A stretch of DNA of 63,116 bases, counting the filler, from Reclinomonas americana ATCC 50394 (taxonomy: Eukaryota), in the NCBI GenBank assembly GCA_048213135.1. It is 14 parts of 14 records of this genome, joined end to end, with 100 filler letters (N's around TTAATTAATTAA, not from the genome) between each part and the next. Parts side by side here need not be neighbours in the genome. Positions count along the whole stretch, not along the records: positions 55,499 to 63,116 come from AFZH01018315.1; 13 more parts are not named here. The stretch is one strand, 5' to 3'. The translations under genes and the position numbers were made by a program. Of this stretch, positions 3,187 to 63,116 are shown in pieces. Every line of letters begins with the position of its first letter. Positions within the stretch are counted from its first letter, which is position 1. The notes beneath the pieces were generated by a model. The model was given only the letters and a program-made list of their open reading frames with translations, had not been told where the DNA came from and did not search any database.

Positions 3187-6077
3187 TTACTCCGCGGCGC
3201 GCGAGTTGCGATCCGGCTGTGCCACTCGTTCATCAGCGCGTGCAATACGCTGCTCGTCGGCCAGCGCTTGCTCCAGCGTCCTGGCACGTTCTGATTCCGC
3301 AGCGCGCTGCTCCGTCGCTGACGCTTGTTCCTGAAGTGCCAGTCGCTCCTCCACAACAGCTCTGGCACGTTCCAGCTGCGCTACACGCTCCTCAGCAGCG
3401 CGTGAGATGCACTGCTCCTCAGCCAGTGCTTGCTCCTGCTGTGCCAGTCGCTCCTCCACCACAGCTCTGGCACGTTCCAGCTGCGCTACACGCTCCTCAG
3501 CAGCGCGTGAGATGCGCCGCTCCTCAGCCAGTGCATGCTCCGCTTGCGCAGCTCGCTCCGCCGCAAGCACTGTGTCTCGTTGCAGAAGGACCGCATTCTC
3601 CTCCAGCTGAACCACGCGCTGGCGGAGCCGCGCCACAGTGCCTTCGTACTGTCGGCGCTGGCGATTCCACTCTTGCTGCTGCAACTCCCGCTCTCGTTTC
3701 GCTGCGTCGAGCTCGCGCTGGAGTCGAGCGGTGTCGGCGGTGGCAGCAGCACCCTGCACGTATCACTTGTGAGACGAGCGATGGAGAATGAAGGTTACCA
3801 ACAGGGAGGAGTTCTCACCCGTTGTGTTGCGTCGGCTGCTGTGCGTTGGGCAAATAAGTCCGCGTTGTCAGCACGAACTCAGCACTGAAAGACAAGGCAA
3901 CGCACCTGGAGGCGAGGAAGCAGGAGGTGGTCGCAGTGGCTGTGCAGGCTGCGCGGTGAGGCGATCGAGCAACTCGGCCACTTGCTCCTTGCGGCCGTCG
4001 CGCGCCATCTTCGCCGCGGTCTTGCCCTCCTTGTTGACCATCGGAATGAGGTCGGGGTAACGAGTGGCGAGGAGTCGCACGATAGCCTCGTGGCCTCCAT
4101 AGGCCGCCAAGTGCAGCGCAGAGGCCTGGTCTTCTCTCGTGACCGCCAGCACCATCTTTGGCGGACATCGTCGCTCATCCGCCAGCAGCCACTCCACCAC
4201 TGGCAAATGCCCGTCGCGGGCCGCCGTCATCAGCGCCGTCTGGCCGTATCCATCGACCAACTGTGCGAGCTCTGAGCCCACACCACTCTCCGCCCACAAG
4301 TACTCCAGCACCGAGAGGCGGCCGAGACGTGCGGCACTGTGAAATGCCGAGTTGCCGAGCATGTCCATCTCCTCCCTCCGCAGCAACGTCCGAGCGCCCT
4401 CACGCGCCACCAGTTCGCGCAGTGCTTCGACTTCGCCACACCTCGCCATCTCGTACGCCCTCTTCCTTGGTAGTGGCGGTGGTGGAGGAGGTGGGGGAGG
4501 AGGATCACTGTGCAAGTCCACAGGCACTCAGTATACTTGAAGGACGTGAGTGAACAAGAATGGAGAGCACTACAAACCCTGCACCGCTGCTGTGCGGCAA
4601 CTCTGGCTGCCGATGGAGTTGGACGACGGAGGCATCATCCGCAGTCTGCGTGTGGAAACGAGAGGTCTGAGTTGGAGAAAGACACAGAGCAGCAACTGCG
4701 GCGATTCAGTCTCACCACCCGCAACGTGTCGGCTGCTTCAGTAATAGAGGTGATGAGAAGATGAGCACAAGGACTAAAGCATGCAACGCTGGACACACCT
4801 GGCGAAGAGAAAACAGACTGAGGTTGCTGCAGCTGCGTCTGGACAGTGTGCACATAGAAACGAGTTGGAGAGAGCCCGCAGAGCAGCTCTTGCAGCGATT
4901 TCAGGTCTCACCTCCCGCACCGTGTCGGCTGCTTCAGTCAAAGAGAGTGAGGAGAGGATCGCACAGGCCACGCTGAAAAAAGTGAAGAGCAATGCGCATC
5001 GACGCACCTGGTGAGGAAACAAGCTGGAGGGGGACGACGGAGGCATCATCCGCAGTCTGCATGTTGAAACGAGAGTTGGAGAGAGCTCACAGAGGAGCAA
5101 CCGCAGCAATTCAGGTCTCACCTCCCGTACTTCACTGGCGGCTTCAGTAATAGAGAGTGATGAGAAGATGAGCACACAGACTGAGCATGCAACGTTGAGC
5201 GCACCTGGAGGTGAGGAGACAGACTGAGGTTGCTGCTGCTGCCTCTGGACAGTCTGCACATAGAAACGAGTTGGAGAGAGCCCGCAGTGCAGCTCTTGCA
5301 GCGATTCAGGTCTCACCTCCCGTACTTCACTGGCAGCTTCAGTCAACGAGAGTGATGAGAAGATAAGCACACAGACTGAGCATGCAATGTTGAGCGCACC
5401 TGGTAAAGAGGAAACAGACTGAGATGGAGGAGGCACAACGAGATGGTCCAGCAGCTTGCCCACATGCTGCATGCCACACTCGCGAGCCCACTGCGCCGCC
5501 GTCTTGCCCTCGTCGTTGACCATCGGAACGAGGTCGGGAAAGCGCGTGGCGAGCAGTTGCACAACGGCTTCGTGGCCATTCCGCGCCGCCCAATGCAACG
5601 CCGTGCGCTGCTCAACAGTGACCGCCCGTGCTTGTTCCACCGGGCATCGTCGCTCATCGGCCAGCAGCCACTCGACCACTGGCAAATGGCCGCGCAAGGC
5701 AGCAATCATGAGCGGAGTCACGCCACTGGTGGTGACCAACTGTGAGAGTTGTGCCCCGACACCACTGCTCTCCTCCCACAGGTACTCCATTGTGGAGAGG
5801 TGGCCATTGCGAGCGGCCCACTGATATGCCGACTGGTTGTACTCGTCCATTTCTTCGCGTTGGAGCAGAGTGTGGGCGCCCTCGCGTGTGACGAGTTCGC
5901 GCAGGGCTTTTATGTCGCCATCTCTTCCCATTTCCCAGGCTTTCTTCCTGGGAGGGAGGAGGAGGAAGGAAAAGGAGAAGTGAGGCAGTGGAAAGGTGAG
6001 GGAGTGCGCAGTTGTCAAGAGTAAAAAAAAAACCTGGTGTTGGCATTGCCTGTGGCGCCACTGTGAGCGGCGCCCAT
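3187..6077 (-). CDS. Ankyrin-ankyrin-coiled-coil protein, kinase-less paralogue ('gene B'); possibly a truncated or decaying copy
   Basis: ATG at 6077 (MGAAHSGATGNANTR|KKAWEMGRDG). Ankyrin blocks approx 5400-5948 and 3906-4490. Repeated small linker exons at 4580-5337. Coiled-coil exon from about 3753 ends at TAA 3187-3189. Frameshifted coiled-coil remnant continues to about 2860 and no kinase follows. Confidence 0.75.
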
Positions 6078-6654
6078 TGTGTGTGTGAGAGAGAGACAGA
6101 GAGAGTGAGTGAGTGAGTGAGTGAGCGAGAGAGAGAGAGAGAGACGAGAGAGAGAGGGAGAGAAACCGAACAACAGGACAAACTATTCTCCGAAGAGCGA
6201 TGGGAGAGTGGGGCGTGCAAGAAAGAATTGAGACTGGAGCGGCGATAGACAACATGCAGAGGGGAAAAAATGACATGCCGTCCATTACATACAACTGCAT
6301 ATTTCTCTCAATCGACGTCGAACTCTCAAGATCTTTCCTCACATGGGGCGCCATCTCATTCTCCACTGATTTACTTTTCGTGTGTGTCGGTCCTCGCTGC
6401 ATATCATCGTGCATTGCTGCACCTTCTGCACTCGGTGCACGTGGAGAGATGATGGGCCCGCGGGCCACATGCACGTCGGACAGCTGAACGTCATCGCCAA
6501 CGTGGCGGAGCACACGATATGAGGTGGATAAGAAGCGGTACACACTGTGAGGGAGTGAGTGCCGTGTTCTGCCTCAGCTTCAACCGATCCACTGCTGTGC
6601 CTGGCTGCACACAGAAGCGGGCGAGTTGTTGCACAGTCGCAGCTCCGAGCAGCC

Positions 6655-9600
6655 TCACTGGAGCTCCAGCGTGAAATCACCCAGCTTCTCTCGCAGCTCG
6701 CACATCACGGCCTTGGCTTGCTCCGCAATCGGACGGTCAAAGAGCAGAGACATGCATCTGCAGGCACAGATAAGTGCCGCACGCAAACACACACTCCCAC
6801 CTTCCTCCAACGACAACGCAACTGCACTCCCAGCTTCAACATGCCACGCGCCACATCCTCCCGCCACTCGCCTGCCGTGCGGTCCGCCTCGGCCATCGCG
6901 TCCACCGCGTCTAGCGACCGCTCCCACACACGAGCCTGATCCACCAGCACATGCGCTTCGCGACCCGTCAGCAGCTGTAGGAGGATCAAGCCGAGAGCGT
7001 ACATGTCCATTGGGAGGCGAATTTTGCACGATTGCAAGAAGAGTGGGTCGATGTAGAACGTCGAGCCGGAGCGCGTCATGGTGTGGCGGTGTGTCTGCAG
7101 ATGGGGAAAAGGTGAGCTGAGCAACTTGCAGAGAGAAAGATCGTAGTAGCGGACCTCTCCCTCGTCAAAGACACGAGCAATGCCAAAGTCACCGACGCGC
7201 GGCTCACATCGGTTGTCGAGGAGGATGTTGGAGGGTTTAAGGTCCCGGTGCACCACGTCATTCTGTGGAGGGACAGGAGGTGTGGGAATGGGTCTTTCTC
7301 CTCTCTTCTTCTCTCATTGTCTCGGAACGAAGCCTTGCAGCACAAACATCGTGACCCTCACCTGATGCAGGAAGCACACACCCTCAGCGATGCCGAGTCC
7401 GATTTGCAATCGCTCTTTTACCGTCAGCGGCTGCATGTCGGCCGATCGGTTAAACAGCCGCTTCTCAAGATCGTGTCCACTGGGGTGTGTTCCTGGTGGT
7501 CAGCGACAAAGAGGGTAGAAAGGCCACAGCTTGTCTCGTTCTCCCGTCTGTTACGGTCACCTCAATCCTTCTCTTGCCACCGCATCTTGCACTTCCACTT
7601 GCTAACTGGTACATCTGGCACACCTGAGGCCACGCTGCCCTTCGTGTTTTCTATTTCTCTTCGTGGTCGCCGCCCTCGCCTGTCCTTACACGCAGTGTCC
7701 TCTCGTCACAATGCATCTCCAACTGGATCACCCATTGCATTCTCCAATGCCCCTTCACTTCTACCCCTCGCCTGTCCTTACACGTAATGCGCTCTCTTCA
7801 CGATGCATTCCAGTCAAACTACTACTTACTTCCTCTAGTCTCTTGCCACCGTTCGCTCCAATGACGCCCCCTCGCCTGTCCTTGCTGCTACTACCCCCTC
7901 ATCCTTCTACACTGCCGTCTGCTAGTCAAGGCGCCCACTTCTCACTCATATCATTCGAAGACAACAGGACTCGCACCGCCACCTCCCCTAACTTCCACTC
8001 ACCGCATGGCTCGATACACCAAACACCTCTCCCTCGTACCATCGTCCGCAAGCGTTGCATACCCAAGCAGAGGAACAAGTCGGCAATGATACAAACGCCC
8101 AATGGTGTTCATCTGCAACATCACTGACGAATGAGCACACAAACTCACTCAACCCCCTTTCCTCTCTGCGCACCTCCGCATCATACGACTCCATTGCCCA
8201 CGGCGCGGTGCTGTCGATCCGCTTGATGGCCACATCCTCACCGTCCAGCAAGCACAGATACACCTCGCCTTGACCGCCCTCACCGGCCTTGTAGCGCCGG
8301 TGGAAGGATTCGGTGGCGGAGACCACGTCGGCCCAGCCGTACTTGCGCAGGCGGCCGGGATGTGTCGCTGGCAGGATGGATAAGAGACGGCGGTTGATGT
8401 GAACAGCAACCTCCCTGCTGTGCATCCAAACCTTGCAGATTGCTCAACTCGCGGCGGAGACGATCGACTTGGCGAGTCAAGTCAGCGGCACGCTGCTTCT
8501 CGGTGGCAAGCGACTGCTCGAGGGCAGCACACCGCGCTTCAGCTGCTCGCTCCATGTCGCGTTGAAGTTGGGCAACTCGTTCCTGGAAAGCTGCTACTTG
8601 CTCCGTCGCCGCCGCTCTGGCGTCACGTATGTTTTGCTCAAGCTCGGCATTGGCGCGCTCCAGCTGCGCTGCACAATCCTTAGCAGCGCGTGAGATGCGC
8701 TGCTCTTCGGCCAGTGCCCGCGCCGCTTCTGCCGCGTCTCGATGAAGAAGAACTGCATTCTCCTCCAGCTGAACAACGCGGTGACGCAGCTGGGCCATGG
8801 AGCCTTCATGCTCACGGCGCTGCTGTTCGCGTTGCTGCTCAAGATCGTGAACCTGCTGCTCGCGCTCGTGTTTTGCTGCATCGAGCTCGCATTGGAGTCG
8901 GGCGACATCGGCAGCATTAGCAGCAGCAGCCTGCATTTTTGGAGAGAGATCAGAGATGGAGAATGAGAAACTCAAAGTGACGACAGTAGAAGCGATGAGT
9001 TTTCACCTGGTCTGCTGCAGGTTTGGAGTACAGTGCGTGTTTCGCCGACGTGTCAGCGAACAAGATGCAAGGCTTCAACACGAGGTGACGCACAGAATTG
9101 ATACTCACCTTGAGGGGTAGAAGAAAGAATAGGCGGTTGTGGCTGCGGCTGTGGTGGTGGTAGTGCTTGTTGCTCCGCAGAGAGGCGATCGAGCAACTTG
9201 GCCGCATGCAGCTTGCCACAGTGAAGTGCCCACTGAGCCGCCGTCTTGCCATTCTCGTTGACCATGGGAACGAGAGCGGGAAAGCGAGTGGCGAGGAGCT
9301 GCACAATGGCTTCGTGGCCGTTTATGGCAGCCCAATGTAGTGCAGTGGACCGTGGATCACTGGATCGAACGTTGGAGACCGCCCGCACCATCTCCGGCGG
9401 ACATCGTCGTTCGTCGGCAAGCAACCACTCCACCACTTGTAGATGCCCATTGTAGGCAGCCGTCATCAACGGCGTCCAGCCGTCGTCGGCGACATTTTGT
9501 GCGAGTTGTGGCCCGACATCGCTCTCCTCCCACAAACACTCCAACACAGGGAGATGGCCATGACGCGCGGCATAGTAAAATGCCGACCTGCCACCAGAAC

Positions 9601-9754
9601 TCATCTCCTCCCTGCTCAGTAAATTCTGCGCGCCCTCACTCGCCACCAACTCGCGAAGTGCCGTCACATCGCCATCCCTTGCCATTTCCCATGCATTCTT
9701 CTTCTGAGGTGGAGGTGGTGGTGGTGGTGGTGGTGGTGGTGGGTGGGGGAGGAG

Positions 9755-9785
<31 letters not shown>

Positions 9786-10961
9786 AGGAGAAAGTGCACT
9801 GCACACCCAAGATTCAGTGAACGGCAAGTTATATAAGAATGCACAATAGCAATACACACCTGGAGGCGCTGCTGCTGCCGCCAGCTTCGTTTCGCTGCTG
9901 CAACTCTGACTGTTGCTGGAATCGTTGGAGCATGCGGAAACGAAAAGTCAGAGGTGGAGAAGGAGAGACAAAGCAACACAGAGTAGCAATTCGGTCTCAC
10001 CTCCCGATTGGCGTCGACTGCGAATGTCAAAGTACAGCGGAGAGGTGATATGCAGCGAGAACGAAGAGAGAGAGAGAGAGACAGTGAGAGTGCATGCATC
10101 TCTGTGATTGTGCTGATCTCTCTCTCTCTCTCTCTCTCTCTCGTCTTTCTGTGACCTTGCTTGCCTCTCCTCGTCTTTTCTTCCCACAATGGTGAGGCTG
10201 TCTCTTCAGAAAACTCCTCGTCCTCTCCTCTCCTTCTTCCAAAGCTCTTCCCCCTATCAATCGACGCACCTGGTGGAAGAGGTTGTGACTGCCATTCCTG
10301 CAGTTGTGGGGGTGGTGGTAGTGGTGGTGGTGCGGACTGGTCAGCGAGACGATCGAGCAACCCGGCCACTTCGTGCTTGCCGTTGTCGCGTGCCACCTGA
10401 GCCGCCGTCTTGCCCTTCGCGTCGACGTTCAGAATGAGGTCGGGGAAGCGAGTGGCGAGGAGTCGCGCAATGGCTTCGTGTCCTCCCAGAGCAGCATAAT
10501 GCAGTGCAGTATAGTCGAATTTGTTGATCGCCCGCACCATCTCCGGTGGACATCGTCGCTCATCGGCAAGCAACCACTCCACCACTCGCAGATGCCCATA
10601 GAAGGCAGCCGCCATCAATGGCGTGTAGCCATAGTCGTTGACCGTTTGTGCGAGTTGCGGCCCGACGCCACTCTCCTCCCACAAATACTCCAACACAGAG
10701 AGATGTCCCCTTTGAGCGGCATAGTAAAATGCCGAGCGGCCATACGATCCCATCTCTTCTCTCTGCAGGAGAGTCTGAGAGCCCTCACTCACCACCAACT
10801 CGCACAGTGCCTTCACATCGCCCGCCTCTGCCATCTTCCATGCTTTTTTCCTTTATAAGCACGGCACACACATTCAATTAATACGTAACAAAGTGAGCCA
10901 CAGCAGGGGAAAAAGCAAACCTCCTTCCACTTCCAGTGGCTCCATTCTGTGCGGCACCCAT
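6655..10961 (-). CDS. Ankyrin x2 blocks - coiled coil - IRAK/Pelle/RLK-type Ser/Thr kinase ('gene A'), N-terminal Met-Gly
   Basis: ATG at 10961 (MGAAQNGATGSGRR|KKAWKMAEAG). ANK blocks approx 10270-10851 and 9109-9705. Coiled-coil exon 8432-8930. Kinase exons 8174-8367 (GEGGQGEVY, VAIKR), 8003-8112 (HCRLVPLLGY..CLVY), 7362-7479 (PLTVKERLQIGLGIAEGVCFLH), 7155-7262 (HRDLKPSNILLD..DFG), 6823-7094 (GSTFYIDP, DMYALGLILLQLLTG) and 6655-6757 (CMSLLFDRP) are phase-consistent. There is an apparent 1-nt frame discrepancy in the poly-Pro tract near 9740. Confidence 0.85.
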
Positions 10962-17270: not shown

Positions 17271-19610
17271 TTACACTCGAATCCGATCAAACATGCGACT
17301 TATACACCGGCCCACACACGTGACAAACAGCCGCCACGACTCCTCCATCGAGTCGTTGATCGCCGCCGTCAGGTGCCACGCACGCGCCAACGCAGCGAAA
17401 AGCGCGCTCGTTTGCACACGCGACAGATCGAGCTTGCGCAGCGCCTCGCCAATTTTGTGCAACTCGCCGAAGAGCATACGACGCTCCTTGGTCGACGACA
17501 GCGACGGGGTGAGGGTGAGCAGCGACTTGACGAGGTCGCGGATGCGGTCGCTGACGCGGTCCCAGATGCGCGTGCCGCCACCCGCGGCGATGCTGTGAGG
17601 GTCGGCGGTGTGCGGGCGGGGGTCTGCGGGAGAAGGGGAGGGGAGAGGGGATGAGAAGGGAGGAGGAGAAGGTAAGAGGGGAAGAGGAAAGACGGAAGGG
17701 GGAAGACAAGGGAGAAGACGGGGATATCCATCGCTGCTGCAACCCTCACTTGCTCTCGCCGACACAACATTGTTCTCAATCTTTTCTCTCCACCTGTCAT
17801 TCCCGTCATCTGTCTTGCTTTCTCTCCCTTCACATATCACATTTTTCTCTCTTGATATCCATCGCCGCTCCATCATTTCCGCAACTCTCTCTTTCTATCT
17901 CACCGTCTCCTGCACTCCAGTTCTCAATTTCTTTCTCTCCCCCGTCTTCTCTCTTGCTTTCCCTCCCTTCACACTAAATATCCGATTCTCCTATGCCATC
18001 AATCTCCGCTATTTCATCGCTGCAACTCTCGCAAATTATCGGAGCTCTTGCACTCCCTCGTCCCGTTTCATCTCCTGCTTTCCTCTCCTTCGTACCAGCT
18101 CTTCCTTTTTCCCAGCGTCTCCTTCACTCCAGTTCTCAATCTCTTTCTTTCCCGCTCCTTTCTTCGCCACCTCTCTAGATATCTCTCCTCACGCCCTATT
18201 CTCCGTTACCAGCATTCTAGTCTCCACCATTGCCGCAACTCTCTCGTCCTTTTGACGTTTGTCCTTCTTCTCAGATCACTTCTCTCCCACTCCCAGTCCT
18301 GCCGTCTCCCTTGCTTCCCTCCCCTTCACAACTCAACACGCTCTCTCTCTCTCACGCAACTTCCTATTGCCAGTCTCATTCTCTCGCTGTTTCTCCACTT
18401 CATCTCTCCTCCCACGACTCAGTCTTTCTCCGGCTGCATTTCTCTTTCTCTACACCCCTTCTCCTTCCCCTTCCCCCTTTCCCCATTTCCCCCTTCCCCT
18501 TGCTGCCCTTCCCCTTTCCGCACCCAGTGGATACTCCCCCGACGGCCCCTCAATCTCCATCGCCGCCACCACCACATCCTCCGGCTGCATGGCGGCGAGA
18601 ATCGTCGACACAGTCTTGACAAAGTCGGCCAGGTTGTCGCGACGGTCGAGTGCGCGCTGCGGCAATCAACAAAGAGGTGAGCAAACTCTCCCTCCCGCAG
18701 TCCTTCTCCTTCCCCCGCTCACCTTGGCATCGCGCAATTCATCCGTAATGATATTGTCGAATTCGATGCCGTACAGTGTGCTCGAATCACACAACAGCTC
18801 CGTAAACGCCGTGGCCATCACATGCAGGTCGTCGAACGTGAGGAACTGCGCTACCTCGTCAGCTCTCCTTCCCTTCAACACCACCACAACCTTCACCCGC
18901 AACAAACCGTGAGCCTCCGCTTCTCCAAATCGAAGCGGTGGTAGCAGAGAAAGATGACGCGCGCGTAGCGGCGGGCCAGAGTGGCGTTCAGGAAGAACGC
19001 GTGCTGAATGAGGTCCGTCAGCGACACAATGCTCATGGCCGAGGTCCACGACGGTAGAGCGCGGTCCTTGACGTATTTGTAGATGCGGCGGGTGTTTTCG
19101 AACTGGCGGCGGTAGGCGCGCAGGTTGAGGGCGCCGCGCTCGGCCATATCGTCGGGCTCCTTGGCCAGGCGCGACTCGAGCTTCTTGCCGGCCAGGAGGC
19201 GCGCGACCAGCGGGTCCAGCGAGTAGTACTGGTGCAGCAGCTCGCGGAAGACGCTGGCCGACACCATGAGGGTCGACGGCAGCGATTGGTAGAGAGCGGC
19301 ACGATCTGTGAGGAGAAGTAGAGGGTTGGGGGGCGGGACTCGTACAGCAGGACGGGGAATCGAGACAACTAACCAGCTTCATGGGTGACCGAAGGCACGT
19401 GCGCGGCCATGGGCAACGGCGGCAACTGGCCCGTGTACGCCATGGACAGGGATTGCGCTGGCTGCAGGGTTGCACCCGAGGCGCCCGTGCCAAGAGTCGT
19501 GCCAGACATGGGCGAGGGAGAGGGAGAAGTGGCGGGAGTGGAGGATCCGCCATTGCCGCCGCCAGTGGCAGCTGCAGTGCCGGCGGCGCCGGTGCCGCCA
19601 ATCGCTGGAG
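17271..19610 (-). CDS. FIBP: FGF1 intracellular binding protein homologue (5' end in gap)
   Basis: LLHQYYSLDPLVARLLAGKKL..DDMAERGALNLRAYRRQFENTRRIYK..LTDLIQHAFFLNATLARRYARVIFLCYHRFDLEKRRL|QFLTFDDL matches the conserved FIBP core as I recall it. Confidence 0.8.
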
Positions 19611-28570: not shown

Positions 28571-30421
28571 TTACTTCTTGGAGCGGAAGGTCACACGGCG
28601 AATGGCATTGATAATGTTCTCCACCTGCGGCACGGCCATCTTCTCCAGGTTTTGCGCGTACGGCATCGGAATGTCTACGCCGGTCACGCGCTCAATCGGA
28701 GCGTCGAGGTAGTTGAAGGCCTCGCCTGCGTGGGGAGGATAGTTGAGGGAAGCGGACGAGGAATTGCATGAAGCTGGGAATAACACGAAACTCTCCATAA
28801 TGGTGGCTGCAATCTCGGCACCCACGCCAAACTGCGGCCAGCCCTCCTCTACCGTCACCAGGCGTGTCGTCTTCATCACACTCTTCACAATGGCGGGGCG
28901 GTCCAGCGGTCGGATCGTTCGCAGGTTGATGACCTGTAAAGAGGGAGAATGTGGGCACAAAAGTGGAAAGGAGGGAGGGCATTAGAAAAAACGCCTACCT
29001 CAACGCTGATGCCCTCGGCCTCCAGCTGCTGGGCGGCCTGCAACGAGGTGCCCACCATCTTCGAAAAGGTCACCACCGTGACGTCCTTGCCTGTGAAGAG
29101 AGGGGAAGGGGGAGTAATAAGCGGAAGGCGAATGGTGTGAAGAGGGGAAGGGGAGTAATAAGCGGAAGGTGAATGGTGTGAAGAGGGGAAGGGGGAGTAA
29201 TAAGTGGAAGGCGAATGGAGTGAAGGGGGAAGGGAGAGTAATAAGCGAAAGGTGAATGAAGAGGGGAAGGGAGAGTAATAAGCGAAAGGTGAATGAAGAG
29301 GGGAAGGGAGAGTAACAAGTGGAACGTGAATGGTGTGAAGAGGGGAAGGGGGAGTCATAAGTGGAAGGCGAATGGAGTGAAGAGGAGAAGGGGGGACTAA
29401 GTGGAAGGTGAATTTGAAGAGGGGAAGGGGGATTTATACGTGGAAGGCGAATGGTGTGAAAAGAGGGAAAGGGGGAGTAATAAGTGGAAGGTGAATGGTG
29501 TGAACGGGGGATAATAAGCGAAAGGCGACTAATGTGAAGAGGGGAAGCACGAGTGCAGGTCCCGAACTCTTTCTCTCAATGGACACGAGATCAACAAGTA
29601 TGCCACACAGCAGAGCACGAGAGTGAGGAAAGACAACGGCACTCTGTCTCTGAAGCGTGTGAGCAGAAGATCCCAAGCCCACATGCGGCCTACACATCCA
29701 ACATCAATGTGCTCTCCGAAAAGTAGGTGGGAGAGCGAGAGCGAAGAAGAAAAGAGCCGCAGAGCGTGAGACAAGAGGACGAAGAGTGTGCAGTGAGCGC
29801 ACGGGGGGCAGCGAGAAAAACGAGTGCAATATTCGGTGAGAGACTGCAGGGACGCGTCAGAACACACGACTACGCCCGCATGCAACTGCGCTCACCGGAA
29901 AGACAGCGAGACAGCAAGCGAAGAAGACGGGCAAAAGTAGAGACGACATATACTCTCCCCTCCTTTCCCCCCTTTCCCCATTCCCACCTTCACGCTCGAC
30001 CTTGGCCTTGCCCAGCGGCACCACAAAGTCATCCTTTAGTGCCTCCGGGCTCATCGGGAAGCTCACACCGTACAACAGTTCGTTTTCCAGCACCACCACT
30101 GGATTGTCGTCACGCACGGCGGCCTTCATCAGACCCTTGGCGTCCTCCGACGACCATGGCGACACGACAATCAGGCCGGGCACCGAGCCGTACCATGCGG
30201 CAAAGCACTGCGAGTGCTGCGCGCCTGCACGGGGGCGGGGGGAGTAGGTAGAAGGAGGAATTTAGATTGGAGGGAAGTCAAGGAGGGTGTCGATCTCTTC
30301 GCACCGACACCAGCCGCTGGTCCATTGGGGCCGCGGAAGACGACGGGGCAGCTCAGCTGACCGCCGGACATGTACTTGCCCTTGGCGCCAGAGTTGACGA
30401 TTTGATCAATGGCCTGGGAGG

Positions 30422-30465
<44 letters not shown>

Positions 30466-57290: not shown

Positions 57291-58583
57291 ATGCGCCGCG
57301 TGAGAGCACCCCACGTGCGCCCCGACTGGCCGCACCGCGTCGAGCAACTCGGCTTCACCTACCACACCGACCCCGACGGCCACCCGTACTGGTGCGAGTC
57401 GCACATGTATGAGCTGTCGGAGCGACTGGTCGACGAGGTGCAAGAGTGCACGCGTGAGGTGCACGGACTGTGCATGCGCGCGGTGGAGCATGTTGTGCGC
57501 GACGATGAGCTGCTGCGGCAGTTTCAGGTGGCCGAGTGGGTGTGGCCACTGGTGCGGCGCTCGTGGCGCGAGGAGGCCGAGCATGCGGTGTATGGGCGCT
57601 TTGACATTGCGGTCAGTAGGGAGGAGGATGGTGTGCCGCCCAAGGTGCTGGAGTACAATGCCGACACGCCGACCACTCTGCTGGAGTGCTCGCTCGTGCA
57701 ACGACAGTGGCTGGAGGAGGTGATGCCGCCCGGGACGCAGCAGTGCAATCGCGTGCACGACTCGCTGGTGGCGGCGTGGAGACACCAGCTGTCTCTCCTC
57801 GACGGTTCGCAGCAGGTGCTGCACCTGGCCCACGAGGCCGGCCACCGCGAAGACACGGCCACGGTGCAGTACATGGCGCGTGCGGCGCGTGAGGGCGGCT
57901 GGCCGCACACGAAGGTGTTGTCGATGCAGGACTTGGGTTACTGCTCGGAGCGGCGGTGCTTTGTGGATCTGGAGGACGAGCCGGTGCGTGCGCTCTTCAA
58001 GTTGTACCCGTGGGAGTGGCTGCTGGCGGAGCCGTTTGCCAAGCTGCTGGTGGTGGACGGCGATCGCACGTGCATTCCGCTGATGGTGGAGCCGCCGTGG
58101 AAGATGTTGTTGTCGAACAAGGCGATTCTGGCGGTGCTGTGGGATCTCTTTCCCGATCACCGCAACCTGCTGCCGGCGGTGGTGGAGACGCCGGGGGAGA
58201 CGCACGAGAGCATTGTGCGGCGACTTGGTGGTGGTGGTGGAGGAGGGTACGTGCGGAAGCCGCTGCTGGGGCGGCAGGGCGAGAGTGTGCGGGTGGTGGA
58301 TGCGGAGGGGAGGGTGTGCACGGAGGTCAAGGGCACGTATGGGGAGGAGGGTTTCGTGTGTCAGGCGTTTCATCCGATTGCGGTGTTTGAGGGGGGGAGG
58401 CATGCGGTGGTGGGGTCGTGGGTGGTGGGGGGTGGGGGAGGTGGTAGGGGAGGGGTGGAGGCGGTGGGGTTGTCGGTGAGGGAGGATGCGACGTGTGTGA
58501 CGACGGATGGGAGTTTTTTTGTGCCGCAGGTGGTGGTGGGGGGGAGGGGGGAGGAAGAGGAGGAGAGGGAGAGGGAGGAGTGA
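57291..58583 (+). CDS. Glutathionylspermidine-synthase-family ATP-grasp ligase, YgiC/YjfC-like; intronless
   Basis: RPDW..LGFTYHT..PYWCE, YGRFD, KVLEYNADTPTTLLE, LFKLYPWEWL, EPPWKMLLSNKAILAVLWDLFPDHRNLLPA, YVRKPLLGRQG, GSWVV..VRED..T..SFFVP. Single 430-aa ORF. Confidence 0.9.
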   Translation: MRRVRAPHVRPDWPHRVEQLGFTYHTDPDGHPYWCESHMYELSERLVDEVQECTREVHGLCMRAVEHVVRDDELLRQFQVAEWVWPLVRRSWREEAEHAVYGRFDIAVSREEDGVPPKVLEYNADTPTTLLECSLVQRQWLEEVMPPGTQQCNRVHDSLVAAWRHQLSLLDGSQQVLHLAHEAGHREDTATVQYMARAAREGGWPHTKVLSMQDLGYCSERRCFVDLEDEPVRALFKLYPWEWLLAEPFAKLLVVDGDRTCIPLMVEPPWKMLLSNKAILAVLWDLFPDHRNLLPAVVETPGETHESIVRRLGGGGGGGYVRKPLLGRQGESVRVVDAEGRVCTEVKGTYGEEGFVCQAFHPIAVFEGGRHAVVGSWVVGGGGGGRGGVEAVGLSVREDATCVTTDGSFFVPQVVVGGRGEEEEEREREE

Positions 58584-58605
58584 AGTGGTGCATGTAATGA
58601 GCATC

Positions 58606-58611
58606 AATAAA
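58606..58611 (+). promoter_or_regulatory. Candidate polyadenylation signal AATAAA
   Basis: AATAAA lies 22 nt after the YgiC-like stop, in the 38-bp interval between convergent stops. Confidence 0.4.
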
Positions 58612-58621
58612 AGTGTTCATT

Positions 58622-61600
58622 TCAGAGCAGGGTGCACAGCTTGTTCAGCTGCGAATCGGGCAAGAATGGATCAAAAGTGCCGATAATGCGTTCCAGCAAT
58701 TCACCTCGTTCGTGTACACGATACACATGAATTGCTGCTCCGCAAGCTCGGACGGTTAGACCAGCTCTCAAAGAAGTGCACGGTAACAGGCTTTCAAGGT
58801 AGGCTATCGAATCCTGCCGCACTTCCACACCACTTGCCAGCGACCACAGTCGAACTGTCTTGCCGTAACTGCCAATCACAACTTGAAGTCCATCGGGAGT
58901 GAATGCAACGGAGTTTACCCCCCCAACATGTCCCTCAAATCGTCGTAATTCTTCTCCATTCGCCAGTGTCCAAACACGTACCGTATTGTCCTCACTCCCA
59001 CTCACAACATGCTGACCATCAGGAGAGACGGCGACAGACTTCACTCCTCCAGTGTGTCCCTTCATCCGTCGCACTATTTTCCCACCAGCCAATGCCCACA
59101 CACGCACTATCCTGTCAGAACCCCCACCTACAACGTGCAAGCCATCAGGAGAAATGACAACAGACTTCACTCCTCTGGTGCGTCCCTTCAACCGTTGGAC
59201 TTCTTCTCCACAAGCCGATGACCACACTCTCATTGTCTCGTCGTCACACACGCTCACAACATAACGGCAATCGGGAGTAACAGCGACAGACTGCACGGGG
59301 GCATAGTGTCCCTCAAATCGCTGCACCACCTCGCCACTGGATATTGTCCACACACGGACTGTCATGTCCATACTCCCACTGACAGCGAACTGGCCATCAG
59401 GGGTAATTGCAACAGCAGTCACATAGTCTGCGTGTCCCTCCAACCGTCTCACTTCTTCGCCGCACACGGCAGACCATACGCGTATTGGTACAATGTCGCT
59501 GCTCTTCGACTCGTGTCGAGTACTCAATCGGACACCGCTAGATACTTCACGTACATCACGCACCATGACGCGTTGCTCAACATTAACGTTTGCCATAGAC
59601 CACACTCGAACAGTTCCATCGCTGCTGCCACTCACAATGTAGTGACCATCAGGAGTGACGGAGACCGACGAAACTGCTCCACTGTGCCCCTCTAATCGTT
59701 GCTCTTCTTGTCCACTCATCAGAGACCACACTCGCACTGTCTTGTCACTACTTCCACTCACAATGCGCTTATTAGGAGAGATGGCAACCGACCACACAGC
59801 AGCAGTGTGTCCCTCCATCCTTAGTAATTCACGTCCACTCGCCAGCGACCAAAGTCGCACTGTCTTATCCCGGCTACCACTAACGATGTGCTTTCCACAA
59901 GAAGTGAGAGCGACAGACATAACTGCATCAGAGTGTCCGTCTAACCGTCGTACTTCCTCTCCACTCGCCAGCGACCACAGTTGCACTGTGTTATCACTGC
60001 ATCCCCTCACGACGTGCAGGCTGTCTGGAGTGACAGCGACAGACGACACCCAGCCTGTGTGTCCATCCCACCGTCGCACCTCCTTCCCACTTGCCAACGA
60101 CCACACACGTACCGCATCGTTTAGATGGCGGCTGACACTGACAATGTGCTGCCCATCGGGAGTAATGGCAACGGAATTTACCCCATCCGTGTGTCCCTCC
60201 AACCGTTGGACCTCGTCGCCACTTGTCACTGACCACACCCGTACAGTCTTGTCCGCACTACCACTAACAATGTGCTGACCATCAGGAGTGATGGCAACAG
60301 ACATTACCAAGCCAGTGTGCCCCTCTAACCGTCGTACTTCCTCTCCATTTGCCAGCGACCATATCTGCACTGCTCTGCCGTTACCCACACTCACAATGTG
60401 CTGACCATCAGGAGTGGCAGCTATTGATAGCATATTAAATGAAGCATTCCGTACAGGTTCCTTCCCGCCGGCAACATTTGCTCCTCTAAAATCCGCCTCC
60501 CTCGCATACGCCATGCACCAATTCACCCCCCACATATCCGCTTCCCTCCACACCGTCCTGTGCATCACTGCATCCCTCAAATCCGCACCCCTCACTCGCA
60601 CACCCGACAAATCGCGCCCACTGAACGACACTTGTGCCACACACAACAGCGTTGCTGCATTCGCCGATGCCGTCACCAAACGTTCCTCATCCATCTCTCG
60701 TGACAAATAAACCACCTCCCACAATCTCGCTTGCAACTCAGGAGACCGTCGCACCACCTCGGCCATCTGATCCACCAACGATGGTCGATCATTCAGCAAT
60801 CGCACACCCAGCACATGTTGTTGCACATCCTGCATTGTCAATCTCCTCTCTTCATCCCACGTCTCCCATGCAAACACATGCCTTGCCACACAGTGCTCCA
60901 GCAACGATAGATGGACGAATCCCCACTGATCCGTCCCATACCGTCGCACAATCGGACAGCACACTCGCACATGCTGGTTCTTGTGGCCGAGGAACTTGTC
61001 GAACGGTCCCTCTTCCACTCGTCGCAAAGCGAGTGGCGCACCACCAAAGTCGTCCTCCTCTTCCTCTCCGTCATCACCTGCTCGATTCTCTATCACAGAC
61101 ACACGCACCACATTCCTCTCGTGCATCAACCGCGCAAGTCCCTCACAAAATGAGAGACACGTCACCTCACTCGGCACACGCTCCGCACCGAGGCGCGTCT
61201 GCCTCTCCTGCTCCCTCTCAACCCACTGTCGAATGAATCGGTCAAACACATCATACCGGGTCGGACGTTGTAAACCACTCGCCACCAACTGCGGCAACAC
61301 GCGAGACACCACTGCCAGCAGGAACGGATTCGACACCAGTGCATCAAGTCCATGCACACTCTCCAATGCATGAAAATACTCCTCGGCAGTCGACCATCGC
61401 ACTTCACCGTCATCATCATCATCATCATCACCCACTTGCACCAGTCGCTCAAAGTACTCTTCAATCTGCGCCTTGTTGAATGGCGCAATGTGCCGCTCCA
61501 GCAGCTGCCGCATGCACAACTGTCCGCGTGCATCCACCGGTGCAAAGTATCGTCGATACTGCGTCGCTCCACCCAATGCCGTCAGTGCGTAATCGCCGCG

Positions 61601-63033
61601 ACAGGTGATAATCACCTTCACATCGCGACACACATCCAGCTGATTCTTGACAAACAGATTCACACCACGATACAATTCATCGTACCCGTCAAGCAACAAC
61701 AGCAGCGGTTCCTCCTTCAACCGTCGCACATCCGACTCGCTGAATCCCAACTCGGGTGACAATCGCTCCAGTGCCTCCTCCAACAGCCGCTCATCGGCAT
61801 TGTGCAGTGCACCGAGAGGCACACGCACAGGCACTCGTCTGCTCTCCCTCGACTGCCACTGCCGCCAAGCTCGCTCAGCGAGCACCGACATGGTGGTGGT
61901 CTTGCCGGCTCCACTGTTGCCAAACAGTACCAGCACACGCTGGGAGGTGTTGGCGTTGGAGAGGAAAGCATCCACCTCCGTCAACAGATCTGTCATCCTG
62001 TCTCTCGATGAGACGTCACGCTCACGAGAGCATAGCAGTGGCACATACATCTGCATGTCCTTGTGCACACTCTCGTCGTGCTGGTAATAGTCTAGCTCTC
62101 TGTGGCAAAACTCCTGGACACCTACAACAAGTGTGATGAAGGTGGTCAGACACAACACGCAAGTCCTATGTAAGGCCAAACAAGAAAAAACATGGAGCTG
62201 CTCACCTGGGTGCAGACTCAGACGGAACTCATCGAGTTCCTTTTCTGCGAGACGGTGCCTGTGTACGGCCGCTTGATCTCGGGACCGCTGACGAATGTTT
62301 TGCAGCTTGAACTCGACTTGCTCATGCCAGATAGGCAGTGGTAAGTGTCCGTCCTCGTTGGTGACATCCACGAGCGCCCGCACATACGGAGTTTCATTCG
62401 CTGGAAATCGAGTGCATACAAACTCAGCAAGCAACAGAAGGAATACTGCACTCACGCGACTCACCACCCTCGTGTGCTTCCAGTTCGTGATAACTGGCAA
62501 AGCCAACAAAAACGTTTTCTACTAGAACTCTCTCGTCAACTGGACGCACAGTCTGCGGACGTGACCTACATCCGTATATATCATGGATATGTGAGTGGCA
62601 GCAACACGTGATGCAATGCGTCAACCCACTCGCATACCTATCGACGGTACGGCAGCAGTTCATCAACAAAATAACCACCGCGCGTCTCGAGGTCATCAGA
62701 CGCAGACGCTGCATGCAGTATTCCACCAGTTTCAGTGACTTGTCTCCGCTCGCCTGCACGCTCGTTATCAGCACATCTTCTCAACGACGAACTCAAGGAG
62801 CGACACACTCACCAAACGTGACCTGGAGATCTGGTTGACATCGAATGGGAGGAGCAACAAGTCTCGGTCGATCGCCAGCCCGTGACCGGAGAAGAAAAAC
62901 AACACACATTCACACTCCTCATCGACCTCCCCATCCGCGAACTTGTTAAACACGGAGTGCATGTCATCGCCCATCACATTGGGAGACCGGGAGACATGAA
63001 AACCGATATCCTCAAGCACCGGCTGCAACAAAG
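58622..63033 (-). CDS. NLR-like STAND protein: caspase-family (C14) protease - NACHT - pentapeptide repeats - about 14 WD40; 5' end outside window
   Basis: Exons 62813-63033, 62638-62753, 62465-62565, 62206-62400 and 58622-62121 join in phase. FFFSGHG and ILLMNCCR; Walker A GNSGAGKTT, Walker B LLLLDGYDEL, IITCR, NPFLL; pentapeptide run at about 60475-60630; WD40 array at about 58700-60440. Confidence 0.9.
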
Positions 63034-63047
63034 CTGGACACGGAAGC

Positions 63048-63092
<45 letters not shown>

Positions 63093-63116
63093 AGAGATAG
63101 ATACGTAGAACAGACG

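Follow-up and report, generated by a model that had tools for sequence, protein, structure and literature searches.

The minus strand of positions 58622 to 63033 raises the question of whether a eukaryotic genome can encode a repeat sensor, an oligomerising NTPase and a caspase-type protease as one polypeptide. These positions lie in a stretch of DNA (the window) of 63,116 nucleotides, filler included, from Reclinomonas americana ATCC 50394 (assembly GCA_048213135.1), in which positions 55,499 to 63,116 come from record AFZH01018315.1. An initial annotation had proposed that four short exons upstream of a NACHT-WD40 open reading frame (ORF) splice onto it in phase, giving the order caspase-NACHT-pentapeptide-WD40, and both proposals were borne out, as removal of GT-AG introns leaves an open frame in which Pfam and profile matches place the four domains in that order. 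We consider that the locus is probably one eukaryotic gene for an all-in-one receptor of NOD-like receptor (NLR) type, that is, of the signal transduction ATPases with numerous domains (STAND), with a C14 protease head, a NACHT domain, a pentapeptide beta-helix and about 13 WD40 blades. Judged by its sequence, the protease head is a member of MEROPS family C14, paracaspase/orthocaspase-like, with an intact His-Cys dyad.

An ORF scan of 58622-63116 found a minus-strand ORF of 1295 codons (58622..62509), which is the large downstream piece of the gene, and upstream of it two further minus-strand pieces in other frames (62424..62774 and 62768..63115); the peptides quoted in the initial annotation are present in the large ORF and these two pieces. 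In a splice-model test, removing four GT-AG introns gave a single open frame of 1376 codons, the sole stop of which is terminal and which continues past the window at its 5' end. Exon 1 (62813..63033, minus strand like all that follow, its 5' boundary tentative) covers the C14 domain as far as the SGHG strand, starting with the LEDIGFHV helix, and matches Pfam Peptidase_C14. It is followed by intron 1 (62754..62812, 59 nt, GTGAGT..CAG), which shifts the frame and carries an in-frame stop, so that its splicing is required. Exon 2 (62638..62753) encodes the VVILLMNCCR strand with the catalytic Cys codon at 62652-62654, the second Cys aligning with the Cys of the family DAC motif, and intron 2 (62566..62637, 72 nt, GTATGC..TAG), which lies inside ORF 62424..62774, is in frame and stop-free, so that its retention is possible. 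The strand and loop after the Cys (NVFVGFAS..AHEG) are encoded by exon 3 (62465..62565), which is collinear with profile positions about 150-175, and intron 3 (62401..62464, 64 nt, GTGAGT..CAG) again shifts the frame and has to be spliced. Exon 4 (62206..62400) encodes a linker and, before it, the last part of the C14 domain (NETPYVRALVDV...), with the profile alignment crossing the exon 3/4 junction to position 192 of 234, while intron 4 (62122..62205, 84 nt, GTGAGC..TAG) is in frame and stop-free and so invisible in the ORF track. Exon 5 (58622..62121), supported by the ORF, the Pfam matches and the spliced frame, carries NACHT, pentapeptide and WD40 regions and a C-terminal tail up to the stop codon at 58622-58624. 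Splicing is strictly required only for introns 1 and 3, since the other two keep the frame and contain no stop.

Open-frame GT-AG alternatives were enumerated for introns 1, 2 and 3 (23, 23 and 7 respectively), and the best-scoring alternative splice models listed gave profile scores of about 55-71 bits. The chosen intron 3 was the top of its seven alternatives; the boundaries of introns 1 and 2 cannot be fixed by homology, and the choice there was made on splice consensus. The window contains the donor motif GGTGAGT 21 times where 11.4 +/- 3.3 copies are expected, and none of 100 shuffles reached 21. At intron 3 there are tandem GTGAGT donors 9 nt apart (62455-62470, minus strand), the alternative donor lying downstream at 62455; both preserve the frame and their products would differ by three residues. 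A frameshifted pseudogene, or sequencing errors mistaken for introns, was considered and rejected, as each frame change coincides with a GT..AG pair with an extended donor consensus and the excised segments have no counterpart in the C14 profile. At the 5' side, reading the DNA directly revealed a (CT)n polypyrimidine tract (63051..63101, minus strand; Tandem Repeats Finder (TRF) reports it as (AG)25 on the plus strand), which, from its sequence, we take to close an intron upstream at its 3' side, ahead of the first acceptor; the gene therefore extends 5' of the window. The C14 profile match begins only at profile position 29-33, and we read this end of the gene as having at least one more 5' exon, with the first caspase strand, beyond the end of the window.

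The caspase-family assignment of the spliced exons, also part of the initial annotation, was upheld at two levels. Exon 1 alone matched Pfam Peptidase_C14 (PF00656) with 33.2 bits (cut-off 21.4) over profile positions 29-100 of 233, and a phmmer search of the full library with it (E up to 1e-3) gave 17 proteins, 15 of which carry Peptidase_C14. Two exon 1 library matches, P0153 and P0157, are repeat-rich proteins lacking a C14 domain and were discarded as artefacts; these false positives stood among its top-ranked or multi-stretch matches, with E down to 9e-17. A custom C14 profile of 234 positions was then built from 12 of exon 1's C14 relatives, and against it the spliced N-terminus scored 66.7 bits, collinear over positions 33-192, compared to 50.3 bits for exon 1 alone and 47.9 bits for the best unspliced frame. 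Exons 2-4 alone scored 13.8 bits, a value reached in none of 1000 shuffles (maximum 4.4), and the profile alignment is free of gaps at the exon 1/2 and exon 3/4 junctions.

The proposed catalytic codons also lie where they had been placed: the His codon CAC at 62884-62882 (minus strand) falls in SGHG and the codon of the second Cys of NCCR at 62654-62652 (minus strand), and both residues occupy the family-invariant G-H and C columns, which in the C14 family hold the catalytic dyad. Invariance of columns was judged across seven C14 relatives, and within the covered C14 stretch 11 of the 17 invariant columns are kept (L44, L58, V65, F83, G100, H101, L111, P113, C154, A191 and P237). When the family profile of the C14 relatives was compared to the PDB, the MALT1 paracaspase was nearest (E 4e-30), followed by caspase-1 and caspase-7. 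Among the clusters of these relatives eight of ten are unnamed, the names that do occur being Rotaria socialis (a rotifer) and a Marinovum metagenome-assembled genome (MAG), which is alphaproteobacterial and whose protein has tandem C14 domains. Searching exon 1 against PDB sequences gave only a chance match to Frizzled-10 (E 1.4), a word-index homologue search with exon 1 found no longer proteins, and phmmer with the spliced N-terminal 260 residues gave no match among 152 WD40/NACHT hits.

Downstream of the head, the NACHT NTPase core (61586..61939, minus strand; Pfam NACHT, PF05729, 36.3 bits, cut-off 26.7) has, by motif reading, a Walker A motif GNSGAGKTT (61895-61921, minus strand), a Walker B motif LLLLLDGYDE (61676-61705, minus strand) and a VIITCRGD motif (61592-61615, minus strand); both Walker motifs are intact, in agreement with the initial annotation. 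NACHT was the best NTPase family, with neither NB-ARC nor CARD among the listed Pfam matches. An AlphaFold2 model, for which 13 homologues were used, covers 573 residues (62119 to 60400) and had a predicted local distance difference test score (pLDDT) of 80.9 and a predicted template modelling score (pTM) of 0.79. The best Foldseek matches of the NACHT model were NLRC4, the NLRP3 NACHT, NLRP14, NLRP2 and NOD2, with probability 1.00 and E 8e-12 to 1e-9, so that the module as modelled is NLRC4/NLRP3-like in its fold, with nucleotide-binding, helical and winged-helix domains. Between the NACHT module and the WD40 region lies a pentapeptide-repeat beta-helix (60467..60664, minus strand; Pfam Pentapeptide 25.3 bits, cut-off 20.2), and at the end of the AlphaFold2 model short strands recurring every five residues, over residues 503-548, form a regular ladder. 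The pentapeptide spacer is not peculiar to this gene but typical of the whole NACHT-pentapeptide-WD40 family, and it is conserved in the family alignment A2. The WD40 region (58814..60436, minus strand; Pfam WD40 E 8.7e-116, 11 stretches) comprises about 13 units of 42 residues with a 126-nt period and 74-76% identity (TRF), and sequence reading places one degenerate unit (VMVRDVREVSSGVRLSTRHESKSSDIVPIRVWS) amid the regular 42-residue units at about 59468-59596 (minus strand).

Neither the whole protein itself nor a close relative of it was found in a collection of 5.8 billion proteins, where the best full-architecture matches were about 30% identical and came from Peziza, many Mortierellomycota, metagenomic kinase-headed proteins, a Nitrospirae metallophosphoesterase-headed protein and one EukProt protein; in a search of metagenome contigs for close relatives, none of 593 pattern matches was confirmed. 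The NACHT-pentapeptide-WD40 family, of Mortierellomycota and intracellular or endosymbiotic bacteria, shares the same body at 25-33% identity, together with the motifs GxGKT/S, DGYDE, ITCR and SNPFLL, and the heads of its members, where listed, include a kinase (P0121), a metallophosphoesterase (P0125 and P0128), an Arm-like repeat and cofilin, with no C14. As the sampled relatives of the body bear other heads, the protease head was probably joined to the NACHT-pentapeptide-WD40 body by effector-domain swapping. Alignment A2 found 78 loci in prokaryote genomes, mostly MAGs labelled Mycoavidus cysteinexigens and otherwise labelled Chlamydiae, Simkaniaceae, Coxiellaceae, Nitrospirae, Magnetobacterium, Anammoxibacter or Gammaproteobacteria, and 80 metagenome loci, of which almost all belong to a single sample. 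The window's NACHT formed a long branch in a quick tree, within no well-supported clade, and grouped weakly (Shimodaira-Hasegawa-like approximate likelihood ratio test (SH-aLRT) 82) with a EukProt protein and two Chlamydiae MAG loci, and because of this weak placement no donor is claimed. The nearest NACHT relatives found were not cyanobacterial, and the Atlas rows for cyanobacterial NACHT-pentapeptide clusters, with scores under 0.9, serve as leads only. Among other WD40 matches a C14 score was seen for P0007 and P0118, where the C14 is C-terminal, and weakly for P0021, P0099 and P0112. The family is greatly expanded in the MAGs labelled Mycoavidus cysteinexigens, which is an endosymbiont of Mortierella, and is abundant in Mortierellomycota proteins too; some MAG loci (L001) fell inside the fungal clade of the tree and others (L010, L042 and L064) beside it, and this mixing suggests either that host DNA was binned with the symbiont or that genes have passed between the two partners.

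STAND NTPases with WD40 sensors oligomerise on binding a ligand and so activate an N-terminal effector, and the His-Cys dyad of C14 proteases is activated by proximity. Because Apaf-1, NLRC4 and MALT1/caspases work in this way, we infer a mechanism in which a ligand bound by the WD40 propellers would release autoinhibition, the NACHT domain would exchange nucleotide and then oligomerise, and the N-terminal protease domains would thereby be brought together and become active by proximity-driven dimerisation. The activated heads would then cleave themselves or a target, and by analogy cell death or defence signalling could be the result.

Several observations weigh against a single functional protease receptor. 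The exon-intron joins are predicted from genomic sequence, the splice sites are not unique and their boundaries are loose by a few codons, and the 5' end, with the start codon and the first strand of the caspase fold, is outside the window. Exons 2, 3 and 4 singly matched no Pfam family. Three of the invariant C14 columns are altered (D152N, G169T and Q235H) and three more are gapped; D152N puts an Asn in place of the Asp which lies two residues before the catalytic Cys and is invariant in the seven relatives. The altered columns suggest that the specificity or activity of the protease domain may differ, and the Asn beside the catalytic Cys may change P1 preference. With the custom profile, which detected five of six Pfam-defined C14 loci in a control on metagenome loci, no C14 domain was found in any of 38 NACHT-clade proteins, nor in the 78 genome or the 80 metagenome loci. 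The fusion is thus without conservation evidence, as none of the checked NACHT-clade relatives carries it, and no orthologue usable for a test of purifying selection was found in the collections searched.

It is unlikely, in our judgement, that the fused protein is real but that its head, instead of being a death or defence protease, is a non-catalytic scaffold, a dominant-negative regulator or, like MALT1, a signalling protease whose output is not lethal. The Asn for Asp and the two other altered columns would fit such a head, as would MALT1 being the closest solved relative of the family of C14 relatives, since MALT1 is a signalling protease. Many bacterial caspase domains in effector position are also reported to be inactive (PMC7159879). 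Set against this, the catalytic His and Cys are intact together with the flanking SGHG and CR, and inactive forms usually lack one of the two residues (PMC5756287). We give a smaller chance to two separate products, namely an effector-less NACHT-pentapeptide-WD40 protein starting at the first in-frame ATG (DMQMY, 62059-62045) and caspase exons which are part of another gene upstream or of an untranslated leader. This ATG, the first of the large ORF, is only about 45 codons ahead of Walker A, and short N-termini with Walker A at residues 36-114 occur in several family members (P0017, P0022, P0144, P0130, P0148, P0126, P0123, P0138 and P0127); the joins of the caspase exons to NACHT are predictions from genomic sequence. 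The region from 62398 to the ATG is nevertheless open for roughly 85 spliced codons (about 113 with intron 4 read through), and it encodes the collinear end of the C14 domain. Exon 4, the last aligned part of that domain, shares one unspliced ORF with NACHT, and therefore the join of caspase and NACHT does not depend on splice calls alone; after exon 4 there is no in-frame stop before 58622 even with intron 4 retained, so that a separate caspase gene would meet none whether or not this intron is removed.

There is also a slight chance that the locus has no function, being a chimaera either decaying or newly assembled and on its way to becoming a pseudogene. It is a singleton: the window contains no paralogue of it, and none of the collections searched gave a close relative. 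Its amino-acid make-up was flagged as unlike that of the family and its tree branch is long. A decaying gene, however, would not be expected from the 1376 codons left open with one terminal stop after removal of the four introns, from catalytic and nucleotide-binding motifs that are all intact, or from a NACHT module that models with high confidence.

The window is eukaryotic, as is seen from its introns and from the eukaryotic genes around the locus, and these also rule out a bacterial contaminant. The 3' end of the NLR gene is convergent with an intron-free glutathionylspermidine synthase gene (57291-58583, plus strand; Pfam GSP_synth E 1e-117) containing Gly- and Glu-rich low-complexity runs, and the 5' neighbour lies beyond the window. 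A GH79 (heparanase or beta-glucuronidase-like) gene at 52702-55326 (minus strand) consists of two same-frame ORF pieces with an in-frame stop between them; the pieces abut in the Pfam profile yet lie about 800 nt apart, and at the break there is a donor-like site GTGAGA with an in-frame stop just after it. The gap and the donor-like site imply a long CT-rich intron, so that intron sizes would range from about 60 to about 800 nt. Multi-exon pieces of an FIBP homologue (17274-19378, minus strand), a transketolase-family gene (28888-31260, minus strand) and an XPD-like DEAD_2/Helicase_C_2 helicase (45239-48418, plus strand) confirm the intron-containing, eukaryotic context. A cluster of ankyrin-repeat ORFs at 3871-10852 (minus strand), one of which adjoins a protein-kinase fragment (6708-7313), had no detectable NACHT or C14 domain. 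Rfam gave no matches on the window, and gasdermin families were found neither among 16 ORFs (E up to 1e-3) nor among 142 ORFs of at least 138 amino acids (E up to 1e-5), searches which short exons would escape.

Animal apoptosomes and inflammasomes recruit their caspase via adaptor domains, and bacteria often fuse a caspase homologue directly to a STAND ATPase. For caspase homologues with a p20 but no p10 subunit, the review of Klemencic and Funk (2017, PMC5756287) allows extra domains in prokaryotic proteins only, the eukaryotic ones consisting of p20 alone, and a eukaryotic gene that has introns and yet the complete architecture of bacterial type would be a counter-example to that statement. 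Literature searches for a eukaryotic C14-NACHT fusion brought up the prokaryotic description only, though the supplementary tables of PMC2575513 and PMC8851545 could list such proteins. The initial annotation had held that a eukaryotic version would be notable, and this stands in part: cyanobacterial proteins with the four-domain order were described in 2012 and protease-headed NLRs are known in fungi, so that what looks new is that a eukaryotic NLR should have a C14 head. For the same reason the advance in concept is modest, as the architecture is in print for bacteria and protease-headed NLRs for fungi. We regard only as tentative, and rather doubtful, the stronger proposal that this is the first eukaryotic NLR with its own catalytically competent C14 head, an apoptosome or inflammasome made of one protein and assembled in, or acquired by, a eukaryotic lineage that is poorly sampled. 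If true, it would be a living intermediate that links the caspase-STAND conflict proteins of bacteria to the animal systems with their two parts, and a minimal system for studying how a NACHT ring activates a caspase-type protease by proximity. The C14 head would extend the list of eukaryotic NLR effector modules, and so compact a system would allow one to ask whether a fused caspase-type protease becomes active through NACHT oligomerisation and nothing else.

Among known systems the nearest in layout are bacterial. The metacaspase-NACHT-WD40 architecture is widely distributed and has a cyanobacterial form with a pentapeptide region between NACHT and WD40 (Asplund-Samuelsson, Bergman and Larsson 2012, PMC3501461), with which the window gene shares four identical domains in the same order, the caspase homologue being N-terminal in both. 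Caspase-STAND-repeat fusions are familiar from bacteria, and the four-domain form is in print. The cyanobacterial proteins differ in being bacterial and intron-free, and their likeness to the window gene is that of the described domain order. Fungi have gasdermins controlled by NLR sensors whose head is S8 or CHAT (Clave et al. 2022, PMC8851545; 2025 review, PMC12881547), and the HET-Q2-like protease NLRs (S8/NACHT/WD40) are likewise eukaryotic with their own N-terminal protease before NACHT and WD40. Their heads are subtilisin S8 or CHAT, whereas for that of the window gene Peptidase_C14 was the sole Pfam family found; at E up to 10 neither CHAT nor S8 was found on exon 1, and exons 2-4 had no family match. 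The HET-Q2-like genes also adjoin a gasdermin gene, whereas the 3' neighbour of the window gene is the glutathionylspermidine synthase gene, its 5' neighbour falling outside the window. Dyrka et al. (2014, PMC4986451) give 12 N-terminal classes of fungal NLRs, with S8 included and C14 not, and describe metacaspase-STAND fusions as common in bacteria. Hybrids of another kind are recorded in Amphioxus, where LRR-caspase and TNFR-caspase proteins occur (PMC2575513).

The predicted protein resembles the Apaf-1/caspase-9 apoptosome and the NLRC4/caspase-1 inflammasome in combining a sensor made of repeats with a STAND oligomeriser and a proximity-activated protease of the caspase family. In the animal systems, however, the protease is a second protein brought in by way of CARD, whereas here it lies in the same predicted chain and no CARD or death-fold domain was seen. 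Apaf-1, furthermore, uses NB-ARC and not NACHT. The SGHG and C-R motifs of the head are shared with MALT1 and with bacterial caspase-family p20 proteins, although MALT1 itself, unlike the window protein, has death and Ig domains and no NTPase.

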